Positions 35,091 to 59,512 of a stretch of 64,000 bases of DNA are shown piece by piece. The translations under genes and the position numbers were made by a program. This DNA comes from Squalus acanthias (taxonomy: Eukaryota). How positions within the stretch are numbered: the stretch's first letter is position 1; each line of letters begins with the position of its first letter. Where the stretch lies: contig CM059431.1 in assembly GCA_030390025.1 (NCBI GenBank), forward strand, positions 148,802,001 through 148,866,000. The letters are read 5' to 3'. The notes beneath the pieces were generated by a model. That model was not told where the DNA came from. It saw only the letters and a program-made list of their open reading frames with translations, and did no database searches.

Positions 35091-35309
35091 ATGTGATAAC
35101 GTGAAAAGGCTGAGTCAACATGTTTTAATGAAAGGGAAATCTTGTTTTACAAATTTATTAGAGTATTTTGAGCATGTAAGGAGCAGCGTAGATAAAGGGG
35201 AGCCAGTGAATTTAGAATATTTGGATTTGCATAATGCATTAGATAAGGTGTCAGGTAAAAAGTTATTACACAAAATAAGGACTCATGGGGTTGAGGCTAA
35301 TATAGTAGC

Positions 35310-36040: not shown

Positions 36041-36169
36041 CTTCTATATTTGAATGTGGTAGATTGTGAAATTAAAATCATGAAATCTGGTGGTTTATGG
36101 CTGGCCCCCGATCAAAGTGATGATGAAAAACTGTCAGATTTGTGGGAAAACAAAACCGGTTGACTCGGA

Positions 36170-37560: not shown

Positions 37561-37990
37561 TGCGGCCTACACGTGACTCCCGTCCCACTCTGCTGAGGCT
37601 GACTTTCGCTACCTCCCCTCACACGCTGAATTTTGCCCGACCCCAATCGGAGAGGGCTGGCTACCTGGAGCGTGGTGGGGGGAGCGGGGAGCGAATACGG
37701 CACTGTCAGCCTCGCCCATTCTCCCATCCCCGTCCTGTCGGGTTGTGCTGGTGGGGGCAGGTGAGGGGCGACGCACTGATCCGCCCTGGAGCTCCGACCG
37801 AACCGGAACTTTGACCGACCGCCCAAGATCAAAGCGCGAAGCGGAAAATGGTAGGGACATGAGCGGAATTCCAAACCGATCGAAGATATTCCACGCTGCC
37901 CGATTAAAGTGCCTTGGGACGGGGTAGGGGAGCGGGGAGCTTCAGTTACCCCATCTCCCCAAACCCCACCCTCTCCCCAACACCCACCCC
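37560..37990. promoter_or_regulatory. Non-repetitive CpG-rich island
   Basis: High CpG density in a CpG-depleted background; no recognisable coding motif. Confidence 0.35.
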
Positions 37991-38329
37991 GGATAGATGA
38001 GTTTGACCTCTGGCCCTGGTGGTCAGTGCCTTTAACTGCACTTTATCTGTGAATGTTGCTCTCACAGAACCCTCCAGATTGCCCAAGGTTTATCATTGGA
38101 ATTAGACTGTGTGACGGCTGTAATATGTTCAGTAAATGAATAAAGAGTTATATGGGCAGTTCGTACCAGATGTGTGCAATTAAATATCATTTCATATCAC
38201 CTGAGGGTCGTTCAGTCATTGTGTTCAAGTTAAACACCTTGCCGGAGCTTGCATAGCCATCTGTCAATCAGAGACTTGCAATATCACTTGTACGGCACTC
38301 CTGTTTTTAACAAGGTGCAAGGCACACTA

Positions 38330-39845
38330 TCCGGGTGATATAGAGGGAGCCCTACTCTTTATCTAAACCGTGCTGTACCTGCCCTGCGAGCGCTCGATGC
38401 TGACACTCGGTATAAAGTGGGGTCACACTGTCAGGGTAATGTAGAGGGAGCTCTACATTAGTGCGAGGTTATCCACTTTGGTGTCAAAAACAGAAAGGCA
38501 GACTATTATCTGAATGGCAATAGATTGGGAGAAGGGGAAGTGCAACGAGACCTGGGTGTCCTTGTGCACCAGTCGCTGAAAGTAAGCATGCAGGTGCAGC
38601 AGGCGGTGAATAAGGCAAATGGTATGTTGGCCTTCATAGCGAAAGGGTTTGAGTATAGGAACAGGGATGTCCTGCTGCAGTTGTACAGGGCCTTGGTGAG
38701 ACCACACCTTGAGTACTGTGTGCAGTTTTGGTCGCCTTATCTGAGGAAGGATGTTCTTGCCATGGAAGGAGTTCAGCGAAGATTCAAAAGGCTGATACCT
38801 GGGATGGCAGGAATGACATATGAGGAGAGATTGGGTCGATTGGGCATATACTCACTGGAGTATAGAAGAATGAGAGGGGATCTCATCGAAACATATAAAA
38901 TTCTGACAGGTCTGGACAAACTAGATGCAGGAAGAATGTTCCCGATGGTCGGAGAGTCCAGAACCAGGTGTCATAATCTACGGATAACGGGTAAACCATT
39001 TAGGACAGAAATGAGGAAGAATTTCTTCACCCAGAGAGTGGTGAACCTGTGGAATTCTCTACCACAGAAGGTAGTTGAGGCGAAGTCATTAAATACATTC
39101 AAGGATGAGTTAGATATATTTCTTAAAGCTAAAGGTATCAAGGGATATGGGGAGAAGGCAGGTACAGGGTACTGAGTTTAGATGATCAGCCATGATCTCA
39201 TCGAATGGCGGAGCAGGCTCGAGGGGCCGAATGGCCTACTCCTGCTCCTATCTTCTATGTTTCTATGTATGTTTCTATGTTACACTTTATCTAAACCGTG
39301 CTGTTCCTGCCCTGGGAGCGCCCAAAGCTGACACTCGGTATAAAGTGGGGTCACACTGTCAGGGTAATGTAGAGTGATCTCTACACTGTATCTAACCCGT
39401 GCTGTACCTGTCGAGGGAGGGCTAGATACTGAGATTGGGAATAAAGTGGCGGATACTCTGTCAAGGTAATGTAGAATGAGCTCTACACTGTTCTCACCCA
39501 TGCTGCACCGGCCATGGGAGCGTTAGATGCTGACACTGAGTATATCTTGGGGATACCTAGTCAGGGTAATGTAAAGGGAACTCTACACCATTTCAACCCC
39601 ATGTGCTACCTGCTCTGTGAGCGCGGGTTGCTGACACTGTGTATAATGTGTGTCACACCGTCAGGGTAATGTAGAGGGAGCTCTACACTGTGTCTATCCC
39701 GTGCTCTTCCTGCCCTGGGAGCGCACGATGATGACACTGGGTTTGATGTGGGGTACACACTTTCAAGGTAATATAGAGGGAGCTCTACACTGTATCTTAC
39801 CCGTGCTGCTGTACCTGCCCTGGGAGCGCGCGATGCTGACTCTGG
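38330..39845. repeat. ~100-bp tandem repeat interrupted by a CR1 3' fragment (+, ~38460-39280)
   Basis: GTAGAGGGAGCTCTACACTG-like motif at ~38340, 38441, 39369, 39471, 39571, 39671, 39773; CR1 ORF 38525-39175. Confidence 0.88.
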
Positions 39846-39917
39846 TCATCCAGACGCTTCTCTATCTGCTCCCCATGATCTTTGAATGTTACAATCTAAT
39901 CAAGTCTTTCCCTCCCG

Positions 39918-40136
39918 GTGTCGTCACTGGCCTCGGAGGAGGAGCGGGACAGAAGATGGGCCTCCTCCTTTTGGAAACAGTACCGCATCCTGACAGCTCG
40001 TAACTTCAAACAACGGCGAGAAATCATCCTGTCCTGGCTCAACCTTTTCCAGACTCTGACCATGTCCATCATCCCCGGGGCTTTTTGGAGGCAAATCCCG
40101 AAAGTGGAGGAACAGATCCAGCCCCAATCAGGATTG
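39918..40136 (+). pseudogene. Orphan exon resembling the start of an ABCG (ABC-2 type) transporter membrane domain
   Basis: RWASSFWKQYRILTARNFKQRREIILSWLNLFQTLTMSIIPGAFWRQIPKVEEQIQPQSGL followed by phase-0 GT at 40137; 5' boundary uncertain. Confidence 0.7.
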
Positions 40137-40184
40137 GTAGTTCCATCCCATAAACCCCTCCCTTCCATATAAACTATTCGGGCA

Positions 40185-41490
40185 GCCGAGGGGCAGAACT
40201 GATGGAGCGCCGCACAGTCGGAGGAGCAGTACTGAGGGAGAGTTGCACAGTTGGAGGGTCAGTACTGAGGCAGCGCTGCACTGTAAGATGGACGGTACTG
40301 CTGGAGCGCTGAACTGCCAGGGGGCGGGGGGGGCAGTACTGAGGGAGCGCCGCACTGTCGGAGGGTCAGTACTGAAGAAGCGGCTGCACAGTCGGAGGGA
40401 CGATACTAAGAGAGCACTGCAATGACGGAGGGGCGGTAATGAGAGACTGCTGCACTCTCGTAGGGTCCGTACTGAGGGTGTGCTGCACTGTGGTAGGGCA
40501 GTACTGAGCAAACGCTGCACTGTCAGAGGGGCAGTACCGAGGGAGCGCTGCACTGTCGGAGAGACAGTACTGAGCGAGCGCTGCACTGTCAGAGGGGCAG
40601 TACCGAGCGAGCGCTGCACTGTCGGATTATCAGTACTGAGGAACACTGCACTATCAGAGGAGCAGTACTGAGGGAGCCCTGCACTGTCGGAGGGGCAGCA
40701 CTGAGAGGGCGCTGCACTGTCAGAGGGGCAGTACTGAATGAGCGCTGTTCTGTCGGAGGGCAGTACATCGGGAGTGCCGCACTGTCGAATGGGAAGTACT
40801 GAGGAAGCGCTGCACTGTCAGAGGGGCAGTACTGAGGGAACACTGCACTGTGGGAGGGCGGTACTGAGGGAACGCCACACTGTCAGTGTGGCAGTTCTGA
40901 GGGAGCGCAGCATTGTCGAAGCAGTAGTACTGAAGGAGCGCTGCGCTGCCGGAGGATCAGTACTGAGGTAGTGCTGCACTTTCGGAGGGGTGTTTCTGAG
41001 GGAATGCTGCACTGTCGGAGGATCAGTTCTAATGGAGCGCTGCACTGTCAGAGGGGCAGAATTAAGGGAGCACTGCACTGTCGTAGAATCAATACTGAGG
41101 GAGCGCTGCACTGTCGGAGGGGCGTTACTGAGGGAGTGCTGCACTGTCGGAGGGGTGTTTCTGAGGGAGTGCGGCACTGTCGGAGGATCACTACTAATGG
41201 AGCGCTGCACTGTCAGAGGGGCAGAATTGTTGAAGCACTGCACTGTCGGAGGGTCAGTACTGAGGGAGCGCTTCACTGTGGGAGGGGCAGTACTGAGGGA
41301 GCACTCCAGTGTCGGAGGGGCAGTACTGAGGGAGTGCTTCACTGTGGGAGGGTCTGTTGAGAGCGAGCGGTGCCCATTCGGAGTGCCAGTATTGAGGGAG
41401 CACTCCTCTGTGGGAGTTGTATGACTGCGGCAGCGCTACACTGTCGGAGGGGTAGTACTGAGGGAGTGCTGCAATGTCGGAGGGTCAGTC
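40185..41490. repeat. 33-bp SINE-derived minisatellite
   Basis: Same unit as 8430-8890 (rc) and 35310-35710. Confidence 0.92.
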
Positions 41491-42450
41491 TTTTTTTTTT
41501 AATTCTATGCTGGGATTTGTCGTCCCTGGAAAGGCCAGCAATTATTGCCCATCCATAATTGCCCTCGCGAAGGCGGTGGGGAGCCGCCTTCTAAAACCGC
41601 TGCAGTCCCTGTACTGAAGATAGTCTCACAGTGCTGTTTGAGAGGGATTTCCAGGATTTTGACCCAGTGACGAAGAAGGATCGGCGTCATATTTCTAACT
41701 CAGGATCGTGTGTGACTTAGAGGTGTATTGGTGGTGGTGGTGATCCCATGCACCGGCTGCCCATGTCCTACGAGCTAGAATACGTCGCGTGTTTGTGAGG
41801 TACTTCCGAAGAAGCCTTGGCGAGGTGCTGCAGTGCATCTTGTAAATGGCACACACTGTAGCCACGGTTAGCCGATGCTGGAGGGAGTGAATGTTTAAGG
41901 TGTTTGCTTGGGTGCCAACCAAGCGGGCTGCTTTGTCTTTGATGGTGTCGTGTTTCTTGAGTGTTGTTGGAGCTGCACTCATCTAGGCAATTGGAGATTA
42001 TTCCATTACACGCATTACTTGTGCCTTGTAAATGTTGGAATGGGTTTGGTGATTCAGGAGGTGAGACACTTGCTGCAGAATACCTAGCCTCTGACCTGCG
42101 CTTGTTGCCACAGTATTTATGTGGCTGACCCAGTTACGTTTCTGGTCAATGGTGAACTCCAATTGTTGATGGTAGGGGATTCGGTGATGGTAACGCATTT
42201 GAATGTCAATGAGAGATGTTTAGATTCTCGCTTGTTGGAGATAATCATTCCCTCGCACTTCTGTGGTGCGAAAGTTAACTGCCACTTATCAGCCCAAGCC
42301 TCAACGTCGTCCAGGTCTTGTTGCATGCGGGCATGGAATGCTTCATTATCTGAGCAGCTGTGAATGGCACTGAAACCAGTGCAGTCATCAGCGAACATCC
42401 CCATTTCTGAACTTATGTTGGAGGGTGGTTCATTGATGAAGCAGCTGAAG
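41490..42450 (-). mobile_element. Degenerate LINE 3' part (second family)
   Basis: MFADDCT, WADKWQLTFAPQKC, TIDQKRNWVSHINTVAT, YKMHC. Confidence 0.85.
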
Positions 42451-42752: not shown

Positions 42753-45700
42753 ATCATAGAATCATAGAAGATAGGAGCAGGAGTAGGCCATTCCGCCCCT
42801 CTATCCTGCTCCGCCATTCAATGCGATCATGGCTGATCATCCAAATTCAGTACCCTGTTCCTGCTTTCTCCCCATATCCCTTGATCCCTTTAGCCTTAAG
42901 AAATATATCCAACTCATTCTTGAATCTATTGCATGAATTGGCCTCGAGTGCCTTCTGTGGCAGAGAATTCAACAGCTTCACCACTCTCTGGGTGAAGAAA
43001 TTCCTCCTCAATTCTGTCCTAAATGGCTTAGCCCTTATCCTGAGACTGTGACCCCTGGTTCTTGACTCCCCGACCATCGGGAACATCCTTCCTGCATCTA
43101 GTTTGTCCTGTCCTGTCAGAATTTTATAAGTTTCAATGAGATCCCCTCTCATTCTTCTGAACTCCAGCGGGTATAAGCCCAATCGACCCAATCTCTCCTC
43201 ATACGTCATTCCTGCCATCCCAGGTATCAGCCTTCTGAATCTTCGCTGAACTCCTTCCATGGCAAGAACATCCTTCCTCAGATAAGGCGACCAAAATTGC
43301 ACACAGTACTCAAGGTGTGGTCTCACCAAGGCCCTGTACAACTGCAGCAAGACATCCTTGTTCCTGTACTCAAACCCTCTCGCTATGAAGGCCAACATAC
43401 CATTTGCCTTCTTAACCGCATGCTGCACCTGCATGCTTACATTCAGCGACTGGTGCACAAGGACACCCAGGTCTCGTTGCATTTCCCCTTCTCCCAATCT
43501 ATTGCAATTCAGATACAAATCTACTTTCTGTTTTTGACACCAAAGTTGATAACCTCGCATTTATCCACGTTATATTGCATCTGCCACGTTTCTGCCCAAT
43601 CACCCAACCTGTCATCCTGGAGTTTCTCGGCATCTTCCTCGCAGCACACACGCCTACCCAGTTTTATATCATCTGCAAACTTGGAGAAATTACATCTAGT
43701 TCCCTTGTCTAGATCATTAATATATATTGTGAATAGCTGGTGTCCAAAGACCGATCCCTGCGGTACCCCACTAGTCACTGCCTGCCACTCGGAAAAAGAC
43801 CCGTTTATACCAACACTTTGCTTTCTGTCTGCCAACCAGTTCACTATCCAAGTCAATAACTTGCCCCCAATCCCATGTGCCTTAACTCTACACGCTAATC
43901 TCTTATGCGGGACCTTATCCAAAGCCTTTTGGAATTCCAAATACACCACATCCACTGGTTCTCCCTTATCTATTTTACCAGTTACATCCTCAAAAAATTC
44001 CAGTAGATTATTCAAGCATGATTTACCTTTCGTAAATCCATGTTGACTTTGTCCGATCCTGTCACTGTTTTCCAAGTGCTCAGCTATTACATCTTTTATA
44101 ATGGACTCTAGCATGTTCCCCACTACCGATGTCAGGCTTACCGGTCTGTAATTATCCGTTTTCTCTCTACCACCCTTTTTGAATAGTGGGATAACATTAG
44201 CTACCCTCCAATCCATGGGTAGTGTTTTAGATTCCATCGAATGTTGGAAGATGATCAGCAATGCATCTACTATTTCTAGGGCCACTTCCTTTAGTACCTA
44301 GGATATAGATTATCAGGCCCTGGGGACTTATCGGCCTTCAATCCCTTCAATTTCCCTAACGCCATTTCCCTACAAATACTGATTTATTTCAGTTCCTCTC
44401 TTTGATCAGACCCTATGTTCTCCAACATCTCTGGGAGATTACTTGTATCCTCCTTTGTGAAGCCAGAACCAAAATATGCATTTAATTGGTCTGACATTTC
44501 TTTGTTCCCCATTATAAGTTCCCCTGATTCTGACTGCAAGGGACCTATGCTTGATTTCACTAATCTTTTTCTTCTGTTCACATTTATATAAAAGCTTTCA
44601 CAGTCAGTTTTTAAATTCACCGCCAGCTTACTCTCGTATTCTATTTTCCCCTTCTTAATTAATCCCTTTGTCCTCCTTTGTTCAATCTTAAACTGCTCCC
44701 AATTCTCAGGGTTTCTGCTTTTTCTGGACAATTTATATGCGCTCTCCTTGGATCTTATGCTATCCCTAATTTCCCTTGTTAGCCAAGGTTGAGTCACACT
44801 TTTTGTTTTATTCTTATGCCAAACCGAGATGAACAAATTCTGTAGTTCGTCCATGTGTTCTTTGATGGTTTGCCATTGCCTATCCACCGTCAACCCTTTG
44901 AGTGGCATTCCCTAATCAATCGTACCAAACTCGCACCTCATACCATCGTAGTTTCCTTTATTTATATTCAGGACCCAAGTCTCTGAGTCGACTACTTCAC
45001 TCTCCATCCTAATGAAGTATTGTATCATATTATGATCGCTCCGACCCAAGGGGCCTCGCACAACAAGATTGCTAATTAATCCTTTTTCATTACATAATAC
45101 CCAGTCTAAGATGGCCTGATCTCTGGTTGGTTCCTCGGCATATTGTTCCAGGAAACCATCCCGTAAACACTCCAGGAATTCGTCCTCCATAGTAGTGTTA
45201 CCAATTTGGTTAGCCCAATCTATATGTAGATTAAAGTCACCCATGATGGCTGCTGTGCCCTTATTGCACGCTTCTCTAATTTCCCTTTTAATCCCATCCC
45301 CAAACTCTGCATTACTATTTGGAGGTCGACGTATCACTCCCACTAACGTTTTCTGCCCCTTGTTATTTCTCAGTTCAAATCATACAGAATCCACATCATC
45401 AGAGCTAATATCCTTCCTTTCAATTTTGTTAATCCCCTCTTTAACCAGCAAAGCTACCGCGCCTCCCTTCCTTTTTGCCTATCTTTCCTGAATATTGAGT
45501 GCCCCTGGATGTTGAGTTCCCAGCCCTGGCCACCCTGGAGCCATGTTTCGGTTATTCCAATCAAATTATATTCGTTTACCTCTATTTGCGCAGCTAATTC
45601 ATCCACCATGATCCCAATGCTCCTTGCATTAAGACACAAAGCCTGCAGGCTTGTTTTTTTTACCGCTCTTAGACCTATTAGAATTAGTATTTACTGTGGC

Positions 45701-47020
45701 CATGTTTGATTTAAAGCAATGTTTTCTCTGACTGCCACTTTTGTTTTTCTCCTTCCTCTCTTTTGCTTTTATCCTTGTTTCCCTTTCCTCTGTCTCCCTG
45801 CTCAGGTTCCCAACCCCCTGCCATTTCAGTTTAAACCCCCCCCCCCCCCCCCCCAGAGCACTAGCAAACACTCCCCCTAGGACATCGGTCCCGGCCCTGA
45901 CCAGGTGTAGACTGTCCGGTTTGTACTGGTCCCACCTCCCACATAACCGGTTCCAATGCCCCAGGAATTTGAATCCCTCCCCCTTGCACCATTCCTCTAG
46001 CCACGTATTCATTTGAAATATCCTTCTATTTCTACTCTGACTAGCACGTGGAACTGGTAGCAATCCTGAGATTACTACCTTTGAGGTCCTATTTTTAATT
46101 TACCTCCTAACACCCTATATTCTGCTTTTAGTACCTCATCCCGTTGTTTTACCTATATCGTTGGTACCTATATGCACCATAGCAACTGGCTGTTCACCCT
46201 CCCTTTCCGAAATGCTCTGTAGCCGCTCTGAGACATCCTTGACCCTTGCACCAGGGAGGCAACATACCATCCTGGTGTCTCGTTTGCGGCCGCAGAAACG
46301 CCTATCTATTCCCCTTACAATAGAATCCCCTATCTCTATAGCTGGCCCACACTTTTTCCTCCCATCCTGTGCAGCAGAACCACCTACGGTGCAAGGAAGT
46401 TGGCTGCTGCTGTCTTCCCCTGATAAGCCATCTCCCTCAACAATATCCAAAGCAATATATCTGTTTGGGAGGGGGATGGCCACAGGAGACCCCTGCACTG
46501 CCTGCCTGCGCCTATTACTCTGCCTGGTGGTCACCCATTCCCATCCTGCCTGTACACCATTTACCTGCGGTGTGACCAACTCCCTAAACGTGCTATCCAC
46601 GATGTGCTCAGAATCGCGAATGCTCCAATATGCATCCATTCGCAGCTCCAGCGCCGCAATGCGGTCTGTCAGTAGCTGCAGCTGGAAAAACCTCCTGCAC
46701 ACATGGTTGTCAGGGACACAGGAAGTGTCCCTGATTTCTCACATAGTGCAGGAAGAGCATGTCACAGCACCGAGCTCACCTGCCATGACTTATCCTTTAA
46801 TTAATTAATTAAAATTAAATTAAAATTAAATGGATGCCACCAATTACACTAGAATTAAGTGATATACTCAAATGCCCTTGCTTAACAGTAGTCCCCGCTA
46901 CACAAAGAGACCGTAGAAACCACAACATTAAAGTTTAGAAAAATTGAGAAAGAAAACACTCACCAACCAATCACTTACCTGCTTTTTGGTGCTATCACAC
47001 TACAAATACTATTTGCATAC
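42753..47020 (-). mobile_element. Near full-length degenerate CR1 LINE; extreme 5' end probably displaced to 56129-56153 by the LTR element
   Basis: ORF1 (CRRFFQLQLL, IGDSIVRG, HIGTND) at ~45850-46787; APE-RT fragments at 42847-45640; (TTCTATGA) tail. Confidence 0.92.
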
Positions 47021-48625
47021 TGTAGAGTTTCGCAATTATCGCGATTCTAATAATATGAGAGAAGCAGGTTCAATTGATCATTTTTATTGAACGGAATGCT
47101 GTCTTGAAAATAAAGGGTACAGAAGCCTGTAAAATGGCCGCCGCGCATCATGGCAGAAGCTTCCAGTGACACAGTGGGCAGACAAGATGGCGTCGAATAT
47201 ACATTCAGTATGAGATCATACCTGGTACAAATTAAAAAGGCAGGATGCAACCCGTTTGCATTTTTGGACAATAGCAATGATATAAGTGCTTGAATCGTTT
47301 CATATGCACAGTAAGAATCATTGAACTGGGCCATCGAAAGCCTATCCAGACACATCAATACACAAATACCCCCCGGCTCAACAATGAGAGAGACATTGGC
47401 GGGTGATTAAGCCAGTATTCAGGGGGTCCCAAAACCAGTTGAGGAGACGATTCATACACATCCTGGCTGACTCAACAATGAAGAAGGCATTAACGGATAG
47501 TTGGCTAGTTTCAGGTGATACCGAAACCCGTTAAGAAGATAATAGCCCCATGCTGGGAGTTTTGGGCGCCAAAATCACACAAAGGATAACATTTAGATTT
47601 GAGCGGGAGATAAGGCCGACAAAACTGTATAACTATAGGGGACAAATGTCCATCGGGCTCTTGGCTCTTGACTCTTCGCTCTTGTCGTGTGCTGGTTTCT
47701 TCGGCGGGGCTGCGCTGGTCGGTTATTCGAGTGTTGGGTGGAGTTCAATCGGAACGAGCCACCTCGACACGTCGGTAAACGGTGTCCAGACCCATCAGGG
47801 CAACACAGCGGTGTGTTCCCGAGTGAGGCCCGAGTGACGAGAAGAAAGACGAGAAGAAAGACGAGAAGAAATTCCACGTACCGCCACAGTCAGTAAACCC
47901 CGACCGCGCCCGAAGATAAACGGCAGAGTCCACCAGTTCGAATTCTACAGACTACTTCATGACCCGGTTTGAATTCCACAAACTACTTCATGACATCAGG
48001 GAGTCTGGCTTACCCTCCGGCTCTTTGAGCGGATAGCCTGAGCCATCCGCGATGAACTTTACCGGGGCCGTCTCGAGTGGACCCATTCGCGGGAGCGAGA
48101 GTTAACAAGTCGGGTGCAGAAACACTTACAGCCACGTGACAGTCAGGTGCTGCAGCGAAACGAGCTGAGAGCCTCATTTAAATTTCCGAAGTGAGCCGAG
48201 TGGTGAGCATGTATCCCGATCCTACAAATCCAGACGTAGTTTAGGTATATTAAGGGAGGGTGGTTTCTAAGATTAATGTATAATGTGTTCCCCCTTTTAC
48301 GATGTGTCATGTGTTCCCCATTTCCATAGACCAAGTTTTATAAACGTTTGTATACTGATAATCTCTTTGATCTGCGCCTATGACATGTATTTCATGATTT
48401 TAGACGCCATGCAATAAAGACATTCATTTCGTGCTATTCAACCAAGTCAATTTGAGTCTTTCTCTGCATCACTGCTCCTTGCATCTCAGTCCAGGTGTCA
48501 GAACCGTAAGGGCGAGTGGGTCGAACCACTCACAGGTTCTTATTGCAAAGGTCTGGCCGGAGACCAGAGCAAGCAATAGTACAGGCAACGAAAGCCTCAC
48601 CTCGCACCAGTCCGTGACCCTTACA
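47021..48625 (+). repeat. 5' LTR (1605 bp)
   Basis: TGTAGAG...CCTTACA; TATA-like TATATTAA at ~48246; AATAAA at 48413; internal (GACGAGAAGAAA)x3. Confidence 0.95.
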
Positions 48626-48629
48626 GAAA

Positions 48630-48647
48630 TGGCGACCGCGGCAGGAC
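48630..48647 (+). other. Primer binding site, tRNA-Arg(TCG)-type
   Basis: TGGCGACCGCGGCAGGAC 4 nt after the LTR; complementary to the vertebrate tRNA-Arg-TCG 3' end as recalled (GTCCTGCCGCGGTCG-CCA). Confidence 0.85.
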
Positions 48648-48700
48648 CCTGGCAGCAAGAGAGTAATGTCTTAGACCCAGGTTTGAATAAACGAAATGTA

Positions 48701-50428
48701 ATGGACGAAAAAGTAGCCGACTATGTTTTCGGGAATGTAACCCTGACCAAACAGTGGATATGTGACCTACTGACGGATAGGCGTCCGCTAGACGCAGCCA
48801 TCAGGTGGACAGGTAGCAGAGAATATAAGAAGTCAGTAGAGAAATCGGTCTGGTTGATGTGCTACAAAGAGCAAGTCCAACTTTCGGACCAGGTCATTGC
48901 AGCACAGACAGCTCAGATCAAAGAGTTAGACACAGAGATGGAGGAAAAGGTTATGGGAGGACAGAAACTGATTGCATCACTGAATGCGTTGCATCAGGAA
49001 CGCCAAATAGTAGCCAGCCACCACGAGGCTAGGATCGATTACTTAGACTGCCAGGTCACGGAAGCTAAGTTAAGTGAGGGAAAGATTAAAGAACGGTGTA
49101 TCCGCCTAGCTAACCAGATAAAGACCCAGGAAGAAAGTCTCAGGGGAGTTAGGGCGGCATACAAGATGGCTCTCGAGGATAGATCTGAGTGAGCCGACCA
49201 CAGCGTTTGCCAGAGAGAGATAGAGGACCTGAGAGAGGCCCTGAATAAGGCGAACGGCTTGGTGTGTTTCATCAGCCCGTCAGCGAGCCAGCCACAGGTA
49301 GCTAGGGAATTCCCAAAACCACTGCCAAGAAAAGCAGGTGTGGTACCAACCACCAAGCCCTCAGCGCCACCCAGCTATACGGAAACCTGGGTGAGGGAGG
49401 AAGCGGTAGAAATTGAGAAGGATGTTCCCGAGGTAGAACAAACCCCGGAGGTAGTGTCGAACGCGGCACCGATGTGTCCGGTCCGAGAACAAAAGCGGGG
49501 CCCGAACGGGGCAGATGGGGAAGACGGGACCCTTTTAAACCAACTTGTAGTGCCCCACAGCTCACAACAGCTGAGGGCAATGATCAGCCATGTCCGGAAA
49601 CTGTCAGAGTCAGGAGATCCTTCCGTTCATTTTAGAGAGGTAGAACAGACCGCAGCGATTAATGGCTGCGACGGGGAGGAAAAGACCAGAATGTTGCTGT
49701 TCTCTTTGGATAGCTCAATCCTTTAGTGTCTCTCCGACGAGAGCAAGAGGGGAGTTAGGGGCTATGAGGATTTACGGGACGAGGTCCTGGAAGTGTTGGG
49801 AGTGGATGACGAAGGTCCGTTTGTCAGACTGGGTCAGACAGTACAGATGGAGGGAGAACCCCCACGAGTTTTCGCCGAAAGGCTGTGGCCAGTATATCAG
49901 CGTAGCTGCCCAAGTACACCAGCGCGTCACAACCTGCACGGTGTCGAGAAAGCTCATTGGCTCAGGTGCGTAGTCGCCAACAGCTTGCCAGCCATCAGGG
50001 AGCAAGCCAAGGCGTGGTTTGATCCCACCAACCCCAATACAACGGAGGAGTCGGTCCTGAGTCAGCTCACCATAGGACATAGAAATACTAGAAGCACGGG
50101 AGCGCGTCCCCTTAAGAGAAAAGTGCATGAAGCAAAGCCCGCAGCTCCGGCTCAGAAAGAGTGGCATCAGGAGGGAAATCGCGCCCCACAAACCAATAGT
50201 GTTTGTTACGGGTGCGGGAAGGCAGGTCACTAGCGCAAAAACTGTAGGAATCCCTGGAAGGATTCCAAGGAGAAAGCTCCCGCAGTCCGAGCCCAAACGC
50301 CTGTCTCTGAGAGAGGAGCTGGTGTGCCTATCCATTACGACGCGATCGAGTCAATGTTAGGAGCCATGCGGTCTCTTATGACCTCACACGGAAAGGTAGC
50401 AACAGCCCCATACAACCCAGACTTCTGA
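48701..50428 (+). pseudogene. gag: gag-like gene (~575 aa) with 3 in-frame stops
   Basis: One frame across ORFs 48431/49259/49793; stops at 49190, 49724, 50231; N-terminal coiled coil, PSAP and PPSY late-domain-like motifs, capsid-like region, CYGCGKAGH*RKNC knuckle (50204-50245). Confidence 0.85.
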
Positions 50429-51469
50429 TTGGAACCGGCGCAGCCTGCCTACCTGTGTCCCCTTGAAAGACACGCACAGGAACAGACCTCCTGTAAGGAG
50501 GCCAGGTTAAATGAGCAGGCCTTACGGGAGGAGAACGCTCGCTTAATGGGGAAAATAGACGGGCTAGAAGGGCAGCTTAGAGACATAAAGGCAGCCTACA
50601 GGGTAGCCAGGAGCAGGGAGTATGAGGATTTAAACCATGGGCCCTGTGAGGAAAGTATAAAATGTCTGACCCAAGCCCTATCCAAAGCCAGAGGGATGGT
50701 TTGCTCAACAACCCCGGGGGAATTCAACACCCCGCAGTTGCAAGCCATGGTAGCAGAGTTGCCCAAACTAAAACAGAATAGAAATCTTCAGCCTCCAGCA
50801 GGCGATATTACACAGAATGCACAAGCAGGGGCGGTGGCCTGTCTTAGGGGAGGGGCCAGACCTGCGAGTGGGGACTCTCAGCCCCGGGTAGAACCGCAGG
50901 TCACGCAGGCCGGTAAAGCAGCCTGCGTGAGGGGAGAAGACATTCTGCAAAAGTGGAGGGTCTCTCCTTTTTCTTGGGATTCGGATGAGGAAGGGCCCGG
51001 AGGGCTCGACCAAGTTTGTGACCCGGTCGGAGAGGTGGTGGGGTCGGAGGACGGAGGTTCCACCCTCGACCCGAGCATAGGGGAGGTAGGGATTACGGGT
51101 GGAGATTCACCTACTGTTGAAACAAGTAGGGTGGAGTCGGAAACCGCAGATCCCGAGCCCAGGGGGGTGGAGCCAGGGGATACAGAACCGGCGGCTGTGG
51201 TGGGACCACAGGCGGTGACGGTGGAAGTCCCGGTCCCCGGTCCGTCGGCCCTGGAGGCCTTGCCCAAGGTGGCCCTCCGCAGGTCGAGTCGGACACCCCA
51301 GCACAGGAAGTTGTGGTCAGATCCCTCGTACACCCCCAGGTATAAGTCCAAGGCAGCCCAGGGAGGTCCCAGTTCCCGATCGGCAGCGACAGGCTGCGGC
51401 GGATCAAAGACAAGGGTCAGTGTCCCCCCGCCACGGGGAACAGCTCGCGGCAGCCTTCTCAGGAGTTAG
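50429..51469 (+). CDS. Open 346-codon ORF in frame after the gag stop; contains a diverged Gag coiled-coil copy and a low-complexity tail
   Basis: LRDIKAAYRVA...HGPCEESIKCLTQALSKARGMVC aligns with gag LRGVRAAYKMA...HSVCQREIEDLREALNKANGLVC; LRRSSRTPQ near the end; no PR, RT, RNase H or IN core motifs. Confidence 0.6.
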   Translation: MEPAQPAYLCPLERHAQEQTSCKEARLNEQALREENARLMGKIDGLEGQLRDIKAAYRVARSREYEDLNHGPCEESIKCLTQALSKARGMVCSTTPGEFNTPQLQAMVAELPKLKQNRNLQPPAGDITQNAQAGAVACLRGGARPASGDSQPRVEPQVTQAGKAACVRGEDILQKWRVSPFSWDSDEEGPGGLDQVCDPVGEVVGSEDGGSTLDPSIGEVGITGGDSPTVETSRVESETADPEPRGVEPGDTEPAAVVGPQAVTVEVPVPGPSALEALPKVALRRSSRTPQHRKLWSDPSYTPRYKSKAAQGGPSSRSAATGCGGSKTRVSVPPPRGTARGSLLRS

Positions 51470-51739
51470 CTAGGCCGCCCTGGGAACGGGCGGCGCTGTA
51501 CAGTAATTTTAGGAGGATAAGTTTAGGTATAGTGTTTTAATATCAGGTTGAGATTGTAGATTAATTTCATAAGTAAATGGTAAAATGATGGGAGTTAGTG
51601 ATAGGAATAGTTAAGGTCTATCCAGTATGCATGTCTTGTACGTGAGACGAGGTCAAGGGACCCGCTCACTCTTCACAAAAGCCAGAGACTGTTGGGAGGC
51701 TGGCTACATCATTTTATCTGATCACAGGAACCAGGAGAT

Positions 51740-54050
51740 ATGAATTGGATTCTTGTGGTGCTCGCGACGATCGGATATGGATTGGCCTATCGGGGCCTCA
51801 CCAAGAATGTCGTTGTGTTCGGTTGCTCCGGGGACACGGCCCCCATCACGACGGATGGGACCGGGAAGCGAGAGGCTGAGGAAAGCGCCACTTATTTCCA
51901 CAATGGAAGGTGGCCGGGATGGCTGGGAACGAATTCAACGGAATACTCCAGCGCATCCGGGTTTGCGTACAAAGAGACTTCTTTACTGTGTCCCAGGGTG
52001 AGGATCGTTGCAGCCAGAATCAGCGTCACCGTTGGCAAAAGGATTTGTTTGGTGTGCATTTTAAACGTCACATTGAGCCGATGGTGGTGGTTACGGAAGT
52101 TAAGCAAGACTATGAGAAATTCCTCGGACGAGTGGGAGCGATTGGGTAACAATACCCATCGGACAATTACGGGGACTAACGGACAAGTGAGAGTCTGTTG
52201 GGACAAATGGTGGGAACCGGATGAGGGAATATATGTTTGTATGTGGGGATCTACGTACGTTTGCCCCAAGGGTATATCCATATTTTTCCTACAACAGTGG
52301 CAGGATGCCGGGAAAGGGATGAGGTGGGACGTCAGCACCCGGGGGTGCGGAGCTCCACTCTCCCCGATCCCGGTAAACGCCACTGAACTCATCACGCGCC
52401 CACGCAAGTCCCCGCCCACGATTCCGGTGGCATTGGCTCAGGAGGAAGGGTGCCCTAAAACCACTAAGGGGCCCGGGAATGGTCTGTTACTGGTGCCAAC
52501 AGATCAGATACTGTATCAGGGGGTACATTACGCGGTGGCCTCGGTGATTCTAAATCTCACCGAGGTGCATTTGCCAGAATGGTGCCCCAAAGAAACGGAA
52601 AAATTGTACCAGGTCCTGTTAACAAACATGTTCAGGCAGTTTTATGAGTTCGATTTTGCAGAGGTTGACAAAACAAGCTAATACACCACACCACACGAAG
52701 TTTTGGGTCAGGTGGGGAGACAAAGAAGGGGTGCTGTGAACGATGTGTTCACTGCTTTTAATACGGGAACATCTGTGGTCAACGCTCTAGATAATGTAGA
52801 GCTGCAGACACAGATCAACGGTTTAAAGACACAGTTAAAGAGCATCGTCACAAATGAGAATAAAGTAGCAGGGTCTGAGTTACATAAGGACCAGGCCATG
52901 ACACTACACTTAAAAGAGATTATAGCAGAGCTGGAGAATCATGTGAGAACGGTAAATGCCCTGATCAGGGAAGATCGAAATGCATCCGATCAAGCTGCGC
53001 AGAACGAGGTGTGCGTGTTATACGGGTGTGGTTACTGGGCGAAGGCCGCAGTAATTTGGAGGATTTAAAACAAGGTTTGGTCCCGTCCTGGATAAGCAAC
53101 AAACACCTGCAGGCGCTACACCCTTTTCAGAACCCATTAAGCCCGTGCCAGCTCAGGCTAGCCTCAGAGGCATACCCAGTCCCAGTGGACTGCGGACACT
53201 CAAATCACACTATCATGGGTATAGTGGTACGGATGCCGGTGTTGGGCAACACAGCAAAGCCCGCCCCGGTGTACAGGGTGGAGAACATTGGACTCATTCA
53301 GGGGGGAGCCCACATTCGCTACGCAGCGGTCCCACCTTACGTCATCCGCTGGGAGCAAACGATGACAGGTACCGACCTCTCAGGTTGTCATAGCAGGGGA
53401 GCACACCTCATACTTGGTCCCCAGCACTTGAATGCCTTTTTAATACCACAATGCGGGTTCAGAACGGCTGGGGCGAAGCCCATGAATTGCACCATGGAAG
53501 CAATGACACAAGATCATGTGCCCCCACAGGTGGCATACATAGGGGGTGGAACGTATTGCGTTACCACTGCAGCGCAACACTACCAGCATGGACAGAACAG
53601 TCGGTGTCCGGTGAGTGACAGCAGTTTCTGTTTTAAACCCAGGGCTGAAGTTCAAGTGGCACAACAGCGAATTGTCCCAATTCCTGCACCCTCCACGGTT
53701 CACCTCACTGTTAAAGAGAATTTCACAGACTTGCAGCGATTCGTCGCGCATTTCGCGTACATCATTCCCCCTCTCCCTGAACACCTCACCAAGATTTTAA
53801 AAGCCGTCATGGTATCACAGAAACATTTTTACACCCTGGAACAGAAGACTCTAGAGATAGGGGCAGAGATATTGGACATAGTAACCCCACCGTGGTGGGA
53901 TCTGTTCACTAATATTGAAGTCCCGTAAGGATCAGGATAGCCTCCCACATTTTGGTAGTATGTCAAGTTGTAATTGTAGTGTACCTGTTGTTCGTGCACT
54001 GCAAAAGGGGCAAACGCCTCACGAGGCAGGAGAACACAGCGGAGTGGTAA
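51740..54050 (+). pseudogene. env: env-like glycoprotein (~770 aa): signal peptide, Ig-like domain, furin site, fusion peptide, heptad repeat, Cys-rich region, TM
   Basis: MNWILVVLATIGYGLA; RQRR|GAVNDVFTAFNTGTSVVNALD (52718-52729); TM IASHILVVCQVVIVVYLLFVHC then KRGKR; lesions: TAA at 52679, frameshifts at ~53024 and ~53928. Confidence 0.85.
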
Positions 54051-54477
54051 GAACGTTACGTGCGCGTGAACGAGGAAACTACTGCGTAAGCTGCCAGGAT
54101 AGTGCCCCTCCATTTTACCGTGTGTGTGTTGTAATTGTTGTAGTTATAAGCTTTTGTGGCTAAGTTTTTGGAACTGTTGTATTTTTAAAACAGTCGGTTT
54201 AATTGTTTTTCTTTTGTAATAAAACATGCATGTACAGGTAGTGCAAGAGGCATCGGCCTTTTGCACCTGGAAGGCGAATACGCAGTGTAAGTTAAAGGCA
54301 ATGCTGTCTATGATTGTCCAAGATAAACACAGTGTGATTTTTCTGGGAAATGAGGACTACATGTGTCGTGGGGGCCATAGATAGATTAATTACCGGGAAC
54401 GTTTGGATGTGGAGAATCGGGATAATTTTAATCAAAAGCATTTAATTGATATGATAAGCGGAGTTATTCGCATCAAC

Positions 54478-54486
54478 AGGAGGGAC
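54478..54486 (+). other. Polypurine tract
   Basis: AGGAGGGAC immediately before the 3' LTR. Confidence 0.65.
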
Positions 54487-56128
54487 TGTAGAGTTTCGCA
54501 ATTATCGCGATTCTAATAATATGAGAGAAGCAGGTTCAATTGATCATTTTTATTGAACGGAATGCTGTCTTGAAAATAAAGGGTACAGAAGCCTGCAAAA
54601 TGGCCGCCGCGCATCGTGGCAGAAGCTTCCAGAGACACAGTGGGCAGACAAGATGGCGTCGAATATACATTCAGTATGAGATCATACCTGGTACAAATTG
54701 AAAAGGCAGGATGCAACCCGTTTGCATTTTTGGACAATAGCAATGATATAAGTGCTTGAATCGTTTCATACGCACAGTAAGAATCATTGCACTGGGCCAT
54801 CGAAAGCCCATCCAGACACATCATTACACAAATACCCCCCCGGATCAACAATGAGAGAGACATTGGCGGGTGATTAAGCCAGTATTCAGGGGGTCCCAAA
54901 ACCAGTTGAGGAGACGATTCATACACATCCTGGCTGGCTCAACAATGAAGAAGGCATTAACGGATAGTTGGCCAGTTTCAGGTGATACCGAAACCCATTA
55001 AGAAGATAATCGCCCCATGCTGGGAGTTTTGGGCGCCAAAATCACACAAAGGATAACATTTAGATTTGAGCGGGAGATAAGGCCGACAAAACTGTATAAC
55101 TATAGGGGACAAATGTCCATCGGGCTCTTGGCTCTTGACTCTTCGCTCTTCGCTCTTGTCGTGTGCTGGTTTCTTCGGCGGGGCTGCGCTGGTCGGTATT
55201 CGAGTGTTGGGTGGATTTCAATCGGAACGAGCCACCTCGACATGGCAGGCAGCAGGGTACACCATCCCGATCGTCGGTAAACGGTGTCCGGACCCATCAG
55301 GGCAACACAGCGGTGTGTTCCCGAGCGAGGCCCGAGTGACGAGAAGAAAGACGAGAAGAAAGACGAGAAGAAATTCCACGTGCCGCCACGGTCAGTAAAC
55401 CCCGACCGCGCCCGAAGATAAACGGCAGAGTCCACCAGTTCGAATTCTACAGACTACTTCATGACCAGGTTTGAATTCCACAAACTAATTCATGACATCA
55501 GGGAGTTTGGCTTACCCTCCGGCTCTTTGAGCGGATAGCCTGAGCCATCCGCGACGAACTTTACCGGGGCCGTCTCGAGTGGACCCATTCGCGGCAGCGA
55601 GAGTAAACAAGTCGGGTGCAGAAACCCTTACAGCCACGTGACAGACAGGCGCTGCAGCGAAACGATCTGAGAGCCTCATTTTAAATTTCCGAAGTGAGCT
55701 GAGTGGTGAGCATGTTTCCCGATAATACAAATCCAGACGTAGTTTAGGTATATTAAGGGAGGGTGGTTTCTAAGGTTAATGTATAATGTGTTCACCCTTT
55801 TACGATGTGTCGTGTGTTCCCCATTTCCATAGACCAAGTTTAATAAATGTGTGTATACTGCTACTCTCTTTGATCTGCGCCTATGACATGTATTTCATGA
55901 TTTTAGACGCCATGCAATAAAGACATTCATTTCGTGCTATTCAACCAGGTCTATTTGAGTCGTTCTCTACATCACTGCTCCTTGCATCTAAGTGCAGATG
56001 TCAGAACCGTAATGGCGAGTGGGTCGAACCACTCACAGGTGCTTATTGCAAAAGTCTGTACGAAGACCAGAGCAAGAAATAGTAGAGGCATCGAAAGCCT
56101 CAGCTCGCACCAGTCCGTGACCCTTACA
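54487..56128 (+). repeat. 3' LTR (1642 bp)
   Basis: Colinear with the 5' LTR, a few percent substitutions by eye, plus a 7-bp duplication (~55144) and a ~30-bp extra segment (~55243-55271). Confidence 0.95.
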
Positions 56129-56389
56129 ATACCTCTCCCGGAACCTGGATTTTTAAGAGGGAGCTTTAATCTGTATCTAACCCATGCTGTAACTACCCTG
56201 GGAATTTTGATGGGACAGTGTAAAGGGAGGTTTATTGTCTATCTAACTCATGCTGTACCTATCGTGGCATTGTCTGGTGTGACAGTGCAGAGGAAGCTAT
56301 ATTCTGTGTGTCACCAGAGCAGCATTTGCCCTGGACGTGTTTGATGGTACAGTGTAGAGGGAGCTTTACTCTGTATCTCTGATATATCC

Positions 56390-58100
56390 CATATCACTCA
56401 AAGTAACACTCTCTGATATAGCCCACACCAATCACTGTAACATTATAAAAAAAACACACACCCTTAGCACTTTGATATGTCCCACACCACTCAGTGTGAC
56501 ACACTCTGACATACCGCACTCCCCTCTCTGTAACACTTTGATATACGCGAGAGCCCTCACTGTTACATTCAGATATACCACACACTCCCCACTGTAACAC
56601 TCTGTTATGCCTCACAAAACACACTGTAACACACTGTTATACCCCACAACCCTTAAAGTAACACTATGATATATCCCAGTACTCTCACTGTAACACTCAG
56701 TTACATGCCACACCCCAGAAGCACTCTTATATACCCCACACCACTCACTGCGACATGCTGATATACACACCCAACACTATATTTCACTGATTTCCCACAC
56801 AGCCTCACTGTAAACATCTGATATACAGCACACCATTTACTGTAAACCTTTAATATATCCCACACATGTCACTCTCACTCTCTTATATTCCAAATACCCC
56901 TCCGTGTAACAATCTGAAATACATAGAAACATAGAAAAATAGGAGAAGCAGTAGGCTATTCGGCCCCCCTTGAGCCTGTTCCACCATTCAATATGATCAT
57001 GGCTGATCCTTTATCTCAATACCATATTCCTGCTATCTACCCATACACCCGACACCACTCATTGTAACAATCTGATATATGCCACACAATGTGCTGTTAC
57101 TCCCTTTACCACTCACTATGATACTGATATACCTCGCCCGTCTCACTGTAGCACACTCTGATATATTCCACCCCCTCACTGTAAAACACTCTGATATACT
57201 CCACAACCCACACTGTAACACTCTGAAACACCCCACACTGAAACAATCTGAAATATCCCACACAACTGACTGTAAAATTCTGATGTAGCCCACACCCCTC
57301 AAAATAACAATCTGATATACACCACACCACTAAGTGTAACACACTGATATACCCCACAACCCAGTAACACTCTGACTTACCCCACACCACTCACTGTAAC
57401 ACTCTGATATACCCCACACACCTCATGGTAACACTCTGATATCCCCCACACAGCTCACTGTAACAGTCTGATATACCGGCACCCCTCACTGTAACACACA
57501 CTGATATACCCCACACCCCTCACGGTAACACTTTGATATACCCCAAGCCCCTCATGGTAACACTCTGATATCCCCCACACCGCCTACTGTAACAGTCTGA
57601 TATAACGGCACACCGCACTGTAACACGCTCTGATAAACCCCACACCGCTCACGGCAACACTCTGATATACTCATCCCCCTCACTGTAACAAACACTGATA
57701 TACACCACATCCCTCGCTGTAACAGTCTGATATGCCCCACAAACCTCGCTGTAACTGTTTGATATACCCCACACAATTTACTGTAACAGACTGATATACC
57801 CCACACCCATCACTGTAAAACTCTGATATACTACACCCCCTCACTGTAACATACTCCGATATACCCCACACTCACTACACTGATAACCCACCTCACTGTA
57901 ACACTCTGATATAACCCACACCCCTCACTTTAACAGTCTGATATACTCCACACAGCTCCCTGTAACACCCTGATATATCCCACAACCCACAATGGAGTAC
58001 TCTGCTTTACCTCACACCATTCACGGTAACTCTCTGATACATGCCACACTCTGGATAGTTACACCCCACACAACTCATTGTAATACTGATATAAGTCGCA
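56390..58100. repeat. ~32-bp minisatellite (CACTGTAACACTCTGATATACCCCACACCCCT)n with a short CR1 tail at ~56915-57045
   Basis: Reverse complement of the 32240-33290 array. Confidence 0.9.
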
Positions 58101-58994
58101 CCACTCACTGTAGCCACTGCCACTTCAATCCCATGGGCTTCAATATTGGTAATATGTGTCACTTTATCAAGCACCTTTTCAACGTATAGGGAAATTGTGA
58201 AAGTGTGAGTAATATCAATCATAAAATCATAGAATTGGTGACCCAAGTTGTGTTGACAATTTGTTTAGCGGAACATGACTCCCCACTCTGGCCACATACC
58301 TCGCCTGGTTTCAATCAGTGATTTTCAAAATCAGTTATTTTATTCCCATTTTATTATTTATATTTATTTGTTCTCAGGATATAGGTGACGCTGTCAACAT
58401 CGGTATTACTTGCCAATTCCCAGTTACCCATGATAAAATGGTGGGCCATCATTTTGAACCGCTGCTGTCGGTGTGGTGAAGGTTCTCCTACAATACTATT
58501 ACGGAAGGAATTTCAGGCTTTTGAACCAATAACAATGAAGGAACGGCGACATATTTGTAGGGTACGGTAGCATAGTGGTTATGTTGCTGGACTAGTAAAC
58601 CAGATTCCTAGACGTATGGTCCTGAGTTCAAATCCACCAACTGGGGAATTTAATTTCAAATAATTAAACAAATCTGGAATTCAAAATAACTGTCAGTAAT
58701 AGTGACCCTAAAACTACCGGATTGTCGTAAAAACACATTTGGTTCACTAATATCCTTCAGGAAAGGAAATCTGCCGTCGTTACCCATTCTGGACGAAATG
58801 TGACTCCAGACCCACAGCAATGTGCTTGACTATTAAATACCCTCTGAAATGGCCTAACAAGCCGTTCAGCTGACTCACCACCACCTTCTCCAGGGCAATT
58901 AGGGATGGACAATAAATGCTGGATATGCCTGCGACGTCCACATTCCAAGAATGAATAAATTAATGATTTATAAAGGGTTATAATGTTGTAACCA

Positions 58995-59415
58995 GAACAG
59001 CCATCTTTGTGCGGGCCGCCAGAGCCGCTATCTTTGTAAGGGACGCGAGATCCGCCATCTTTTATGGGGCGCCAGAACCGCTATTTTTGAGAGGGACACC
59101 GGAGCCGCCATCTTTGTTAGGGGTGCCAGAGCCACCATCATTTTTCGGGACCCCAGATCCGCCATCTTAGTTACGGGACGCCGGAGCCGCCATCTTTGTT
59201 AGGGGCGCCGGAGTAAACATTTTTGTGCCGGAGAACGAAGCCGACATTTTTGTGCGAGGCAACGGAGCCGCCAACATTTTTCGGACCCCGGGGGGTGCCT
59301 TCTTAGTGCTGTGCGCAGCGGCCGCAATCTTTGTGCTGTGCGCCGGGGCCGCCATCTTTGTGCGGAGCGCCAGGGCCGCCAACTTTGTGCGGGGCGCCAG
59401 GGACGCCATCTTGAT
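58995..59415. repeat. 27-bp GC-rich minisatellite, copy B (shorter)
   Basis: Same unit as 685-1232. Confidence 0.9.
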
Positions 59416-59512
59416 TATGTGAATTTCGCAGCCGGCGGGCGGCCCGGATGTGAACGGCTCGCCGCAATATGAGGCCCAGTGAGTTCTGAGGCTGCAAAGA
59501 CTCCGCTTTACA

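Follow-up and report, generated by a model that had tools for sequence, protein, structure and literature searches.

A predicted F-type fusogen with a likely N-terminal Ig-like head in an abundant endogenous retrovirus family of the shark Squalus acanthias

The env gene and its lesions

The window analysed here is a stretch of 64,000 nucleotides from the shark Squalus acanthias (assembly GCA_030390025.1, contig CM059431.1, positions 148,802,001 to 148,866,000 of the forward strand). At positions 47021–56128 of the window, on the plus strand, lies a defunct long terminal repeat (LTR) provirus that is devoid of pol and holds one copy of an envelope gene, env. The Env product is, with high probability, a fusogen of the paramyxovirus fusion glycoprotein F type (class Ib), as predicted from modelling of a sister copy, and likely carries its own N-terminal immunoglobulin (Ig)-like attachment head. 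The env region is organized as follows, with model confidence given as the predicted local distance difference test (pLDDT) and heptad repeats A and B abbreviated as HRA and HRB.

51712..51727, plus strand: candidate splice acceptor, conserved in the family
51740..51790, plus strand: env start and predicted signal peptide (sequence; hydropathy of a sister copy)
51989..52267, plus strand: likely Ig-like domain, candidate receptor-binding head (Env residues ~84–176; Cys, Trp and D-x-G-x-Y-x-C pattern)
52268..52468, plus strand: Trp/Cys segment and proline-rich linker (sequence)
52469..52729, plus strand: F2 equivalent, up to and including the furin site RQRR (model residue 229, which is Env residue 245, aligned to F residues 25–34)
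52730..53020, plus strand: predicted fusion peptide and HRA helices (model and sequence)
53021..53720, plus strand: F-like domains III, I and II, Cys-rich and beta (pLDDT mostly 70–95)
53779..53883, plus strand: predicted HRB helix (model helix 665–699, pLDDT ~45–63)
53949..54089, plus strand: transmembrane (TM) anchor (~53949–53996) and short cytoplasmic tail

The frame opens at ATG 51740, and its first residues are hydrophobic and signal-like. The furin site, RQRR at 52718–52729, divides it into a pre-cleavage subunit of 330 amino acids (aa) and a post-cleavage subunit of 453 aa. Furin site, fusion peptide, HRA, a long beta region, HRB and TM anchor follow one another in the order characteristic of class Ib fusogens. 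An earlier note on this DNA had listed RQRR, a polar-hydrophobic fusion peptide, a long heptad repeat that is predicted to be helical, the motifs DLSGC, QCGF, NCTM, YIGGGTYCVTT and SFCF, and a TM segment, and all of these are present. The same note had described the pre-cleavage segment as short, which does not hold for the subunit counted from ATG 51740; it is correct only for the F2 equivalent, to which the F2 match is confined (the last 83–86 aa, with GLLLVPTD at 52481), since the fold match begins at Env residue 245. What had been overlooked is the stretch of 243 residues at the N-terminus, in which the likely Ig-like head lies. As had been maintained, the post-cleavage subunit contains neither CX6CC nor an immunosuppressive domain (ISD), and CC and CX6C are likewise absent; the product thus lacks both features that define a gamma-type Env, an ISD and CX6CC in TM (PMC9967133).

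The window copy carries four lesions in env. Three had been recognized already: a premature stop at 52679–52681 and two frameshifts, with one base missing near 53022–53027 and one at 53928 in comparison with all 12 sister copies compared. The count has to be raised by a further premature stop at 54048–54050, a point from which sister copies extend by about 13 more residues.

Upstream of the start codon, the AG proposed as the splice acceptor of an env messenger is present at 51726–51727, 13 nucleotides before the ATG, and its 12-nucleotide word is conserved in 38 of 40 loci, which overlap in part and are, with few exceptions, closely related. The pyrimidine tract of this site, with 10 of 15 positions, is modest and is equalled by that of one of the 24 YAG sites in the 400 nucleotides upstream. 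Five ATGs occur between 51470 and 51739. No joint to 51728 was found among the contig joints listed (15 of 20, and 6 of 6), which derive from the contigs of five runs whose RNA status was guessed, and one contig runs unbroken across 51639–51792. Contig depth climbs within 51612–51727 in three of four runs, upstream of the candidate acceptor and beside an AT-rich stretch; an upstream acceptor or an internal promoter near 51612–51727 is possible, and contigs are unable to show either. Depth over LTR and env exceeded that over gag in all four runs, an observation left unused since contigs cannot rank genes.

Predicted fold of the Env core

Modelling was carried out on a natural sister copy (L004, residues 17–727) from an alignment of 44 rows. 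The resulting model has a mean pLDDT of 58 and a predicted template modelling score (pTM) of 0.47, its beta core lying mostly at 70–95, and a fold attempt from the single sequence reached a pLDDT of 33. A Foldseek search of the PDB with the model returned exclusively paramyxovirus and pneumovirus F proteins among the 36 matches listed (best E 1.1e-11). All 50 matches listed by the VIA structure search were also F proteins; the best alignment (Z 12.9, 348 residues aligned, root-mean-square deviation (rmsd) 9.9) places model residues 229–636 onto F residues 29–429. The predicted model of the sister copy therefore displays the fold of domains I, II and III that is typical of class Ib fusogens. 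In the BFVD database the matches comprised lispivirus G, paramyxovirus F, baculovirus F, the Env proteins of the walleye viruses WEHV1 and WDSV (ranks 4 and 7) and feline foamy virus Env (rank 49). Atlas, which reports language-model look-alikes, gave Fusion glycoprotein F0 as top match (0.93, 205 of 256 features).

Together with the profile comparison to lokiretrovirus-type (Loki-type) Env described below and the absence of ISD and CX6CC, these searches bear out the proposal that the product is an F-type class I fusogen and not a gamma-type TM protein. The expected likeness to paramyxovirus and baculovirus F was also recovered. By sequence profile (A2) the best PDB match is the TM subunit of a foamy virus, 8RM1 (E 0.003). 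This is not the ordinary retroviral TM protein that the earlier note had set against its own reading, because the foamy subunit has been published as F-like (PMC11468914).

Several observations weigh against an F-type fold. 8RM1 is missing from the PDB matches of a second profile (A3); Pfam Fusion_gly matched the window piece only at E 0.21, and a Pfam scan of the whole sister copy gave no Fusion_gly match; and the model is middling by its mean pLDDT and pTM, with high rmsd values of 5–37 Å. Two further searches contribute little: a genome-wide search with the PF00523 profile yielded no match and is uninformative, as its prefilter was stricter and the positive control was silent too, and phmmer with the window piece against the PDB returned a single chance match.

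The N-terminal Ig-like head

A Cys in strand B, a Trp in strand C and a D-x-G-x-Y-x-C motif in strand F make up the pattern of Ig domains, and all three are found in Env residues ~84–176. In a search of the PDB, each of the 44 matches at E ≤ 10 was a chain of the Ig superfamily, including Robo, antibody light chains and CD8 alpha, the best being weak (E 0.026). Ig clusters were scored by Atlas at 0.88–0.90, and two of the 25 relatives scanned with Pfam matched Ig_3 (P0051, E 0.0085) and V-set (P0076, E 0.045). On this sequence evidence, the segment quite probably adopts an Ig fold. The case against it is that every one of these matches is individually weak and below curated cut-offs, that model residues 17–240 have a pLDDT below 55, which leaves the Ig fold without a confident model, and that the Ig profile, run against 149 targets with a best score of 2.3 bits, did not reach the N-terminal domain of any distant relative, nor that of the snakehead retrovirus (SnRV)-like record L044. 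Pfam gave no match with the window's own Ig-like piece, and Ig chains are absent among the listed rows of the fold searches, all of which are taken by F-domain matches. No host donor gene could be named for the head.

The Env of the snakehead-type record also opens with a weak Ig-like match (L044:6185–6440; contactin and perlecan, best E 0.024; V-set E 0.18). Among distant relatives of the family, P0052 and P0063 have a different Cys-rich domain at this position and P0080 has no head.

The Ig-like head would bind a receptor. This is suggested by its N-terminal position, by selection, by the fact that the element has no attachment gene besides env, and by precedent: class Ib scaffolds take up binding modules N-terminally or between their subunits (PMC11468914), and Ig-type receptor-binding domains (RBDs), one of them captured from a host SIRP gene, are known on gamma- and alpha-type Env (bioRxiv 2024.03.17.585361). 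An alternative that we regard as unlikely is that the N-terminal 243 residues act as a spacer, a chaperone or an immune decoy instead of an attachment head. The region is indeed variable and swapped among relatives, as P0052, P0063 and P0080 illustrate, and Ig decoys are carried by many viruses. However, the ratio of nonsynonymous to synonymous substitution rates (dN/dS) in the Ig region is 0.11 between subfamilies (0.37 within them), and this constraint, the want of any other attachment gene and the two published precedents argue for the attachment head.

Family size, selection and relatives

Exact matches to an 18-nucleotide word from the start of env put the family at no fewer than 3,496 copies (3,496 matches; 0 for the control word). 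A genome search gave 9,789 first-look candidates, 131 of which were scored, at 91–100% identity. Twenty copies were fetched from the top matches, mostly chosen for open env frames. In nine of them the gag stop is followed by a pol frame, and the remaining 11 of the 20 are pol-less like the window copy; the two Pol frames scanned encode protease, reverse transcriptase (RT), tether, RNase H and integrase, in frame behind that stop. An open env frame is present in 18 of the 20, in this sample chosen largely for open frames.

The family env is under purifying selection: comparisons between subfamilies (65 pairs) give a dN/dS of 0.11, those within subfamilies (78 pairs) one of 0.24, and every env region lies below 0.5. 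These values are tempered by the fact that the pairs are not independent, and both the 18 open frames and dN/dS are skewed toward intact copies because of the selection for open env.

For its spread the pol-less type likely relied on enzymes supplied by relatives that have pol. In the pol-less copies L022, L033 and L040 a second LTR follows within ~7.5 kb, which equals the length of the window element, and this recurring length indicates that the pol-less form spread as a unit. Another copy, L029 (G000:C7:149833330–149843320), is located ~1 Mb from the window and shows 99% identity over 8.2 kb with an apparently shared flanking LINE (long interspersed nuclear element) frame, and on these grounds it is likely a segmental duplicate and not a new integration.

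A library-wide search detected 50 Env relatives at E ≤ 0.001. Of these, 23 were looked up, and those with a species name belong to sharks, one skate and the frogs Pelodytes, Mantella (16 cluster members) and Xenopus tropicalis, the nearest being skate (77–81% identity) and sawshark (60–74%). A single-protein scan of viral contigs revealed no relative. In the public shark gene models P0001, P0003, P0049 and P0073, env fragments are fused to cadherin, Niban, zinc-finger and F-box genes; these fusions are likely annotation artefacts or exonised pieces of endogenous retroviruses (ERVs). No description of the Env of this lineage, or of an F fold for SnRV or WDSV Env, was found in the literature searched, whose coverage leaves out most subscription journals, and the family is not described in the available parts of PMC10699275, PMC4422223, PMC6001957, PMC13709493 and bioRxiv 2023.10.26.564294, 2024.03.25.586437 and 2020.12.18.423569.

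Placement of the family among retroviruses

The nearest Pol proteins are frog entries named 'NYNRIN-like' and coelacanth entries (41–45%; 46–53% over RT plus tether), and the frog Pol and frog Env matches presumably belong to the same elements. A first, quick RT tree was built without Loki-type or foamy rows. In the careful tree of 29 rows, the family groups with the canonical retroviruses (support 100/99) and the Loki-type rows fall outside; a clade of the family plus Loki is rejected by the approximately unbiased test (p-AU 0.008). Together with the frog and coelacanth rows, the family forms a short-branched basal grade among canonical retroviruses, and the group above it has a support of 93/90 (98/98 in the tree without Loki rows). 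The branches of the foamy stem (2.2) and of L044 (1.1) are long and may pull other rows together.

The records in these trees were identified by indirect means. The two Loki-type rows (L092 and L093) are closely related to each other and were recognized by motif and by a by-eye match to the published Loki RT; L044 has 10,688 nucleotides, the SnRV GenBank length given in PMC12193657; and the labels of foamy-, gamma- and delta-type records rest on length and Cys-His box. Record L045 we take to be walleye-type. The tree without Loki rows leaves out the delta-type records and the majority of those gamma and foamy rows that were near-duplicates, the 29-row tree leaves out L055 and P0023, and an earlier row set leaves out P0014 and P0034–P0044.

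The family is not a lokiretrovirus, not a strict foamy virus and not gamma-type. A tentative possibility is that it belongs to the SnRV group (clade Huo) and that the Env proteins of the two are built alike. L044 has the best RT-plus-tether score among 39 reference records (280 bits, 37.6%), the same arrangement of gag, stop and pol in one frame, and a TGGCG-type primer site after an LTR ending in TTACA. Its Env matches the family profile at 12–19 bits (shuffled maximum 8.1, n=450) and begins with a weakly Ig-like segment, for which five of six PDB matches, the best at E 0.024, were of the Ig type; SnRV-related ERVs have also been published for the elephant shark (PMC4422223). The approximately unbiased test does not reject a clade of the family and L044 (p-AU 0.115, on the tree without Loki rows), but free trees do not recover it; in them L044 joins the foamy and gamma/epsilon rows (98/98; 93/90). 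Moreover, Gag matches that of L044 only at the Cys-His box (E 0.064), and the accessory genes and the 136-aa tail of SnRV have no evident counterpart in the family.

Less probable still, and rather doubtful, is the view that the family represents the 'foamy-like' lineage of shark and frog, CmiFLERV/XtrFLERV, so far known from pol only. The host pattern of shark and frog is the same (PMC5512871), the foamy Env TM subunit is the top PDB profile match and the target-site duplication is 4 bp. The RT, however, does not group with the foamy rows, which are of the mammalian type only; pol follows the gag stop in the same frame; and a Cys-His box, lacking in the 17 foamy-type records, is present in Gag. 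A Gag without this box is a feature of spumaretroviruses. The foamy-like reading was dropped on account of the RT lying apart from the foamy rows.

A lokiretroviral identity of the element, which would make it the first of its kind in cartilaginous fishes, is very improbable and largely refuted: Loki-type Env does have the best profile score among the named groups tested (67.5 and 62.1 bits), Gag has a coiled coil, and there is a continuous 1,120-aa Pol match to L092/L093 (32%) and a dual RNase H, which is not diagnostic as it is common to all retroviruses, but the RT tree (100/99; p-AU 0.008, with two closely related Loki-type rows), on which this reading was dropped, the start of the Loki-type F module at most ~30 residues from the frame start with no N-terminal head, and the absence of lokiretroviruses from all six chondrichthyan genomes of the Loki paper (PMC7947760) speak against it. 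The features of Ty3/Gypsy errantiviruses, a Ty3/Gypsy RT and a single RNase H, were not found.

Env profiles and the origin of retroviral env

The profile of the family F core was compared with the Env of named retroviral groups, the best of 450 shuffled sequences reaching 8.1 bits. Besides the scores with Loki-type Env given above, for which HHalign with the Env of L093 gave 98.6% (E 1e-15, 364 columns), the profile scored 42 bits with walleye-type Env, 12 with snakehead-type Env (19 with a second profile) and 6–21 with foamy-type Env, where 12 of 17 records lay at E ≤ 0.05. Gamma-type Env remained at noise level (≤5.1 bits). An F-type Env is thus present on both sides of the split between Loki and canonical retroviruses.

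Wang and Han set out four scenarios for the origin of retroviral env and later favoured independent acquisition by lokiretroviruses and canonical retroviruses, as the two Envs seemed unrelated (PMC9040795). This argument is weakened, because a lineage on the canonical side possesses an Env detectably homologous to Loki-type Env and bridging to the foamy, snakehead-type and walleye-type proteins. Retroviruses may thus have had F-type envelopes for longer, and in more of their lineages, than is commonly supposed. The simplest reading is that the F-type env is ancestral, though env swaps are common; we propose only tentatively that it was the ancestral retroviral envelope, that the gamma- and beta-type envelopes are later replacements and that the shark family is its best-preserved abundant witness, with a swappable, host-captured Ig-like head. 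The argument for independent origins now becomes testable with a structure-based tree.

The provirus and its surroundings

The remaining features of the provirus that harbours this env copy are listed below.

47017–47020 and 56129–56132: target-site duplication ATAC, 4 bp, flanking the provirus
47021..48625, plus strand: 5' LTR, TG...CA, ~1.6 kb
48630..48647, plus strand: primer-binding site, complement of the tRNA-Arg(TCG) 3' end
48629..50428, plus strand: gag, with N-terminal coiled coil, a middle part that is probably capsid-like, and one Cys-His box
50429..51469, plus strand: pol slot without enzymes, ~140 codons resembling the Gag coiled coil and an in-frame Pol tail
54475..54486, plus strand: short purine tract preceding the 3' LTR (read from sequence)
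54487..56128, plus strand: 3' LTR, TG...CA, ~1.6 kb

This copy is dead: gag has three premature stops (49190, 49724 and 50231), pol is absent and env bears its four lesions. The two LTRs differ by a Kimura two-parameter distance of 0.036 (1,605 columns), which corresponds to an insertion ~8, 36 or 83 million years ago at yearly rates of 2.2e-9, 0.5e-9 or 2.2e-10 substitutions for each site, figures quoted in the literature; given this range, the age is poorly fixed. The reverse complement of the primer-binding site is present in host tRNA-Arg(TCG) genes. Two tRNA-Arg(TCG) isodecoders seem to be used as primer among family copies, of which one has ~429 matches, a large share of them on contig C26 in tandem arrays of 1.6 kb, and the second has a single exact match. 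In a sister copy, Gag matches zf-CCHC at E 0.0013.

The pol slot shows 38% over 73 aa to the Gag coiled coil and 83% over 204 aa to the Pol tail. The piece that replaces pol in pol-less copies (50429–50850) resembles the Gag coiled coil as protein and not as DNA, and for this reason it likely derives from a diverged gag; it is reminiscent of 'smc', a gene that some lokiretroviruses carry. Behind the integrase, the Pol tail of 200–270 aa, acidic and rich in proline (50851–51469 in the window; L037:4640–5443), contains an internal duplication in some copies and is retained in pol-less ones.

A degraded element with RT, endonuclease and esterase-like frames, presumably LINE-type, adjoins the provirus on the minus strand (42755–46800), and part of it is repeated in inverted orientation at 38495–39267. 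Degenerate tandem arrays with units of 32–33, 42–44 and 27 nucleotides occupy 35300–41550 and 56380–59420.

Proposed working of the envelope protein

Working family members would make a precursor with a signal peptide that is cut by furin at R-Q-R-R and assembles into a trimer. A receptor on the cell surface would be bound by the Ig-like head, which a proline-rich linker connects with the F2-like strand; fusion peptide and HRA would thereupon be thrust outward, and HRB, folding back, would draw the two membranes together. Attachment head and F scaffold would then form a compact one-gene design that has been kept under selection in thousands of copies. F-like lokiretrovirus and foamy virus Env proteins, and Ig-type heads on other Env types, are already in print.

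Comparison with known systems

Paramyxovirus and pneumovirus F proteins (PF00523; PDB 1ZTM, 8U1R, 6W16 and 3RKI) share with the shark Env the predicted domain I/II/III fold over ~400 residues and the order F2, furin site, fusion peptide, HRA, beta domains, HRB and TM. Identity is only 7–14%, however, and the shark protein is encoded by a retrovirus and has a 243-residue N-terminal arm, with a likely Ig domain in it, instead of a separate attachment protein.

Among retroviruses, lokiretrovirus Env (PMC7947760) is likewise F-like with a furin site and is the closest named Env by profile, and the elements have dual RNase H and a coiled-coil Gag in common. In contrast, the RT of the shark family lies outside Loki and Loki-type Env has no N-terminal head. 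Foamy virus Env gp130 (8RM0/8RM1; PMC11468914) is likewise a class Ib Env of a retrovirus that incorporates its own binding module, but this RBD sits between the two foamy subunits as an insertion and adopts a fold of its own, whereas the shark module is N-terminal and Ig-like; the shark family also differs from foamy viruses in the Cys-His box of its Gag and in a pol that lies in frame behind gag. SnRV and the walleye epsilonretroviruses (WDSV and WEHV) have a non-gamma Env (PMC9967133) that matches the family profile and model, and the SnRV-like record resembles the family in its gag-stop-pol layout, primer site and weakly Ig-like Env start. Their Env proteins are much longer (1,130–1,320 aa) and accompanied by accessory genes, and the family RT does not group with WDSV-like sequences. 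Finally, the Ig-type RBDs of gamma- and alpha-type Env (RBD-C; the SIRP-like RBD of bioRxiv 2024.03.17.585361) show the same combination of an N-terminal Ig domain and a proline-rich linker, swapped between lineages; there the domain is mounted on a gamma-type surface and TM subunit pair, whereas the shark head sits on an F scaffold.

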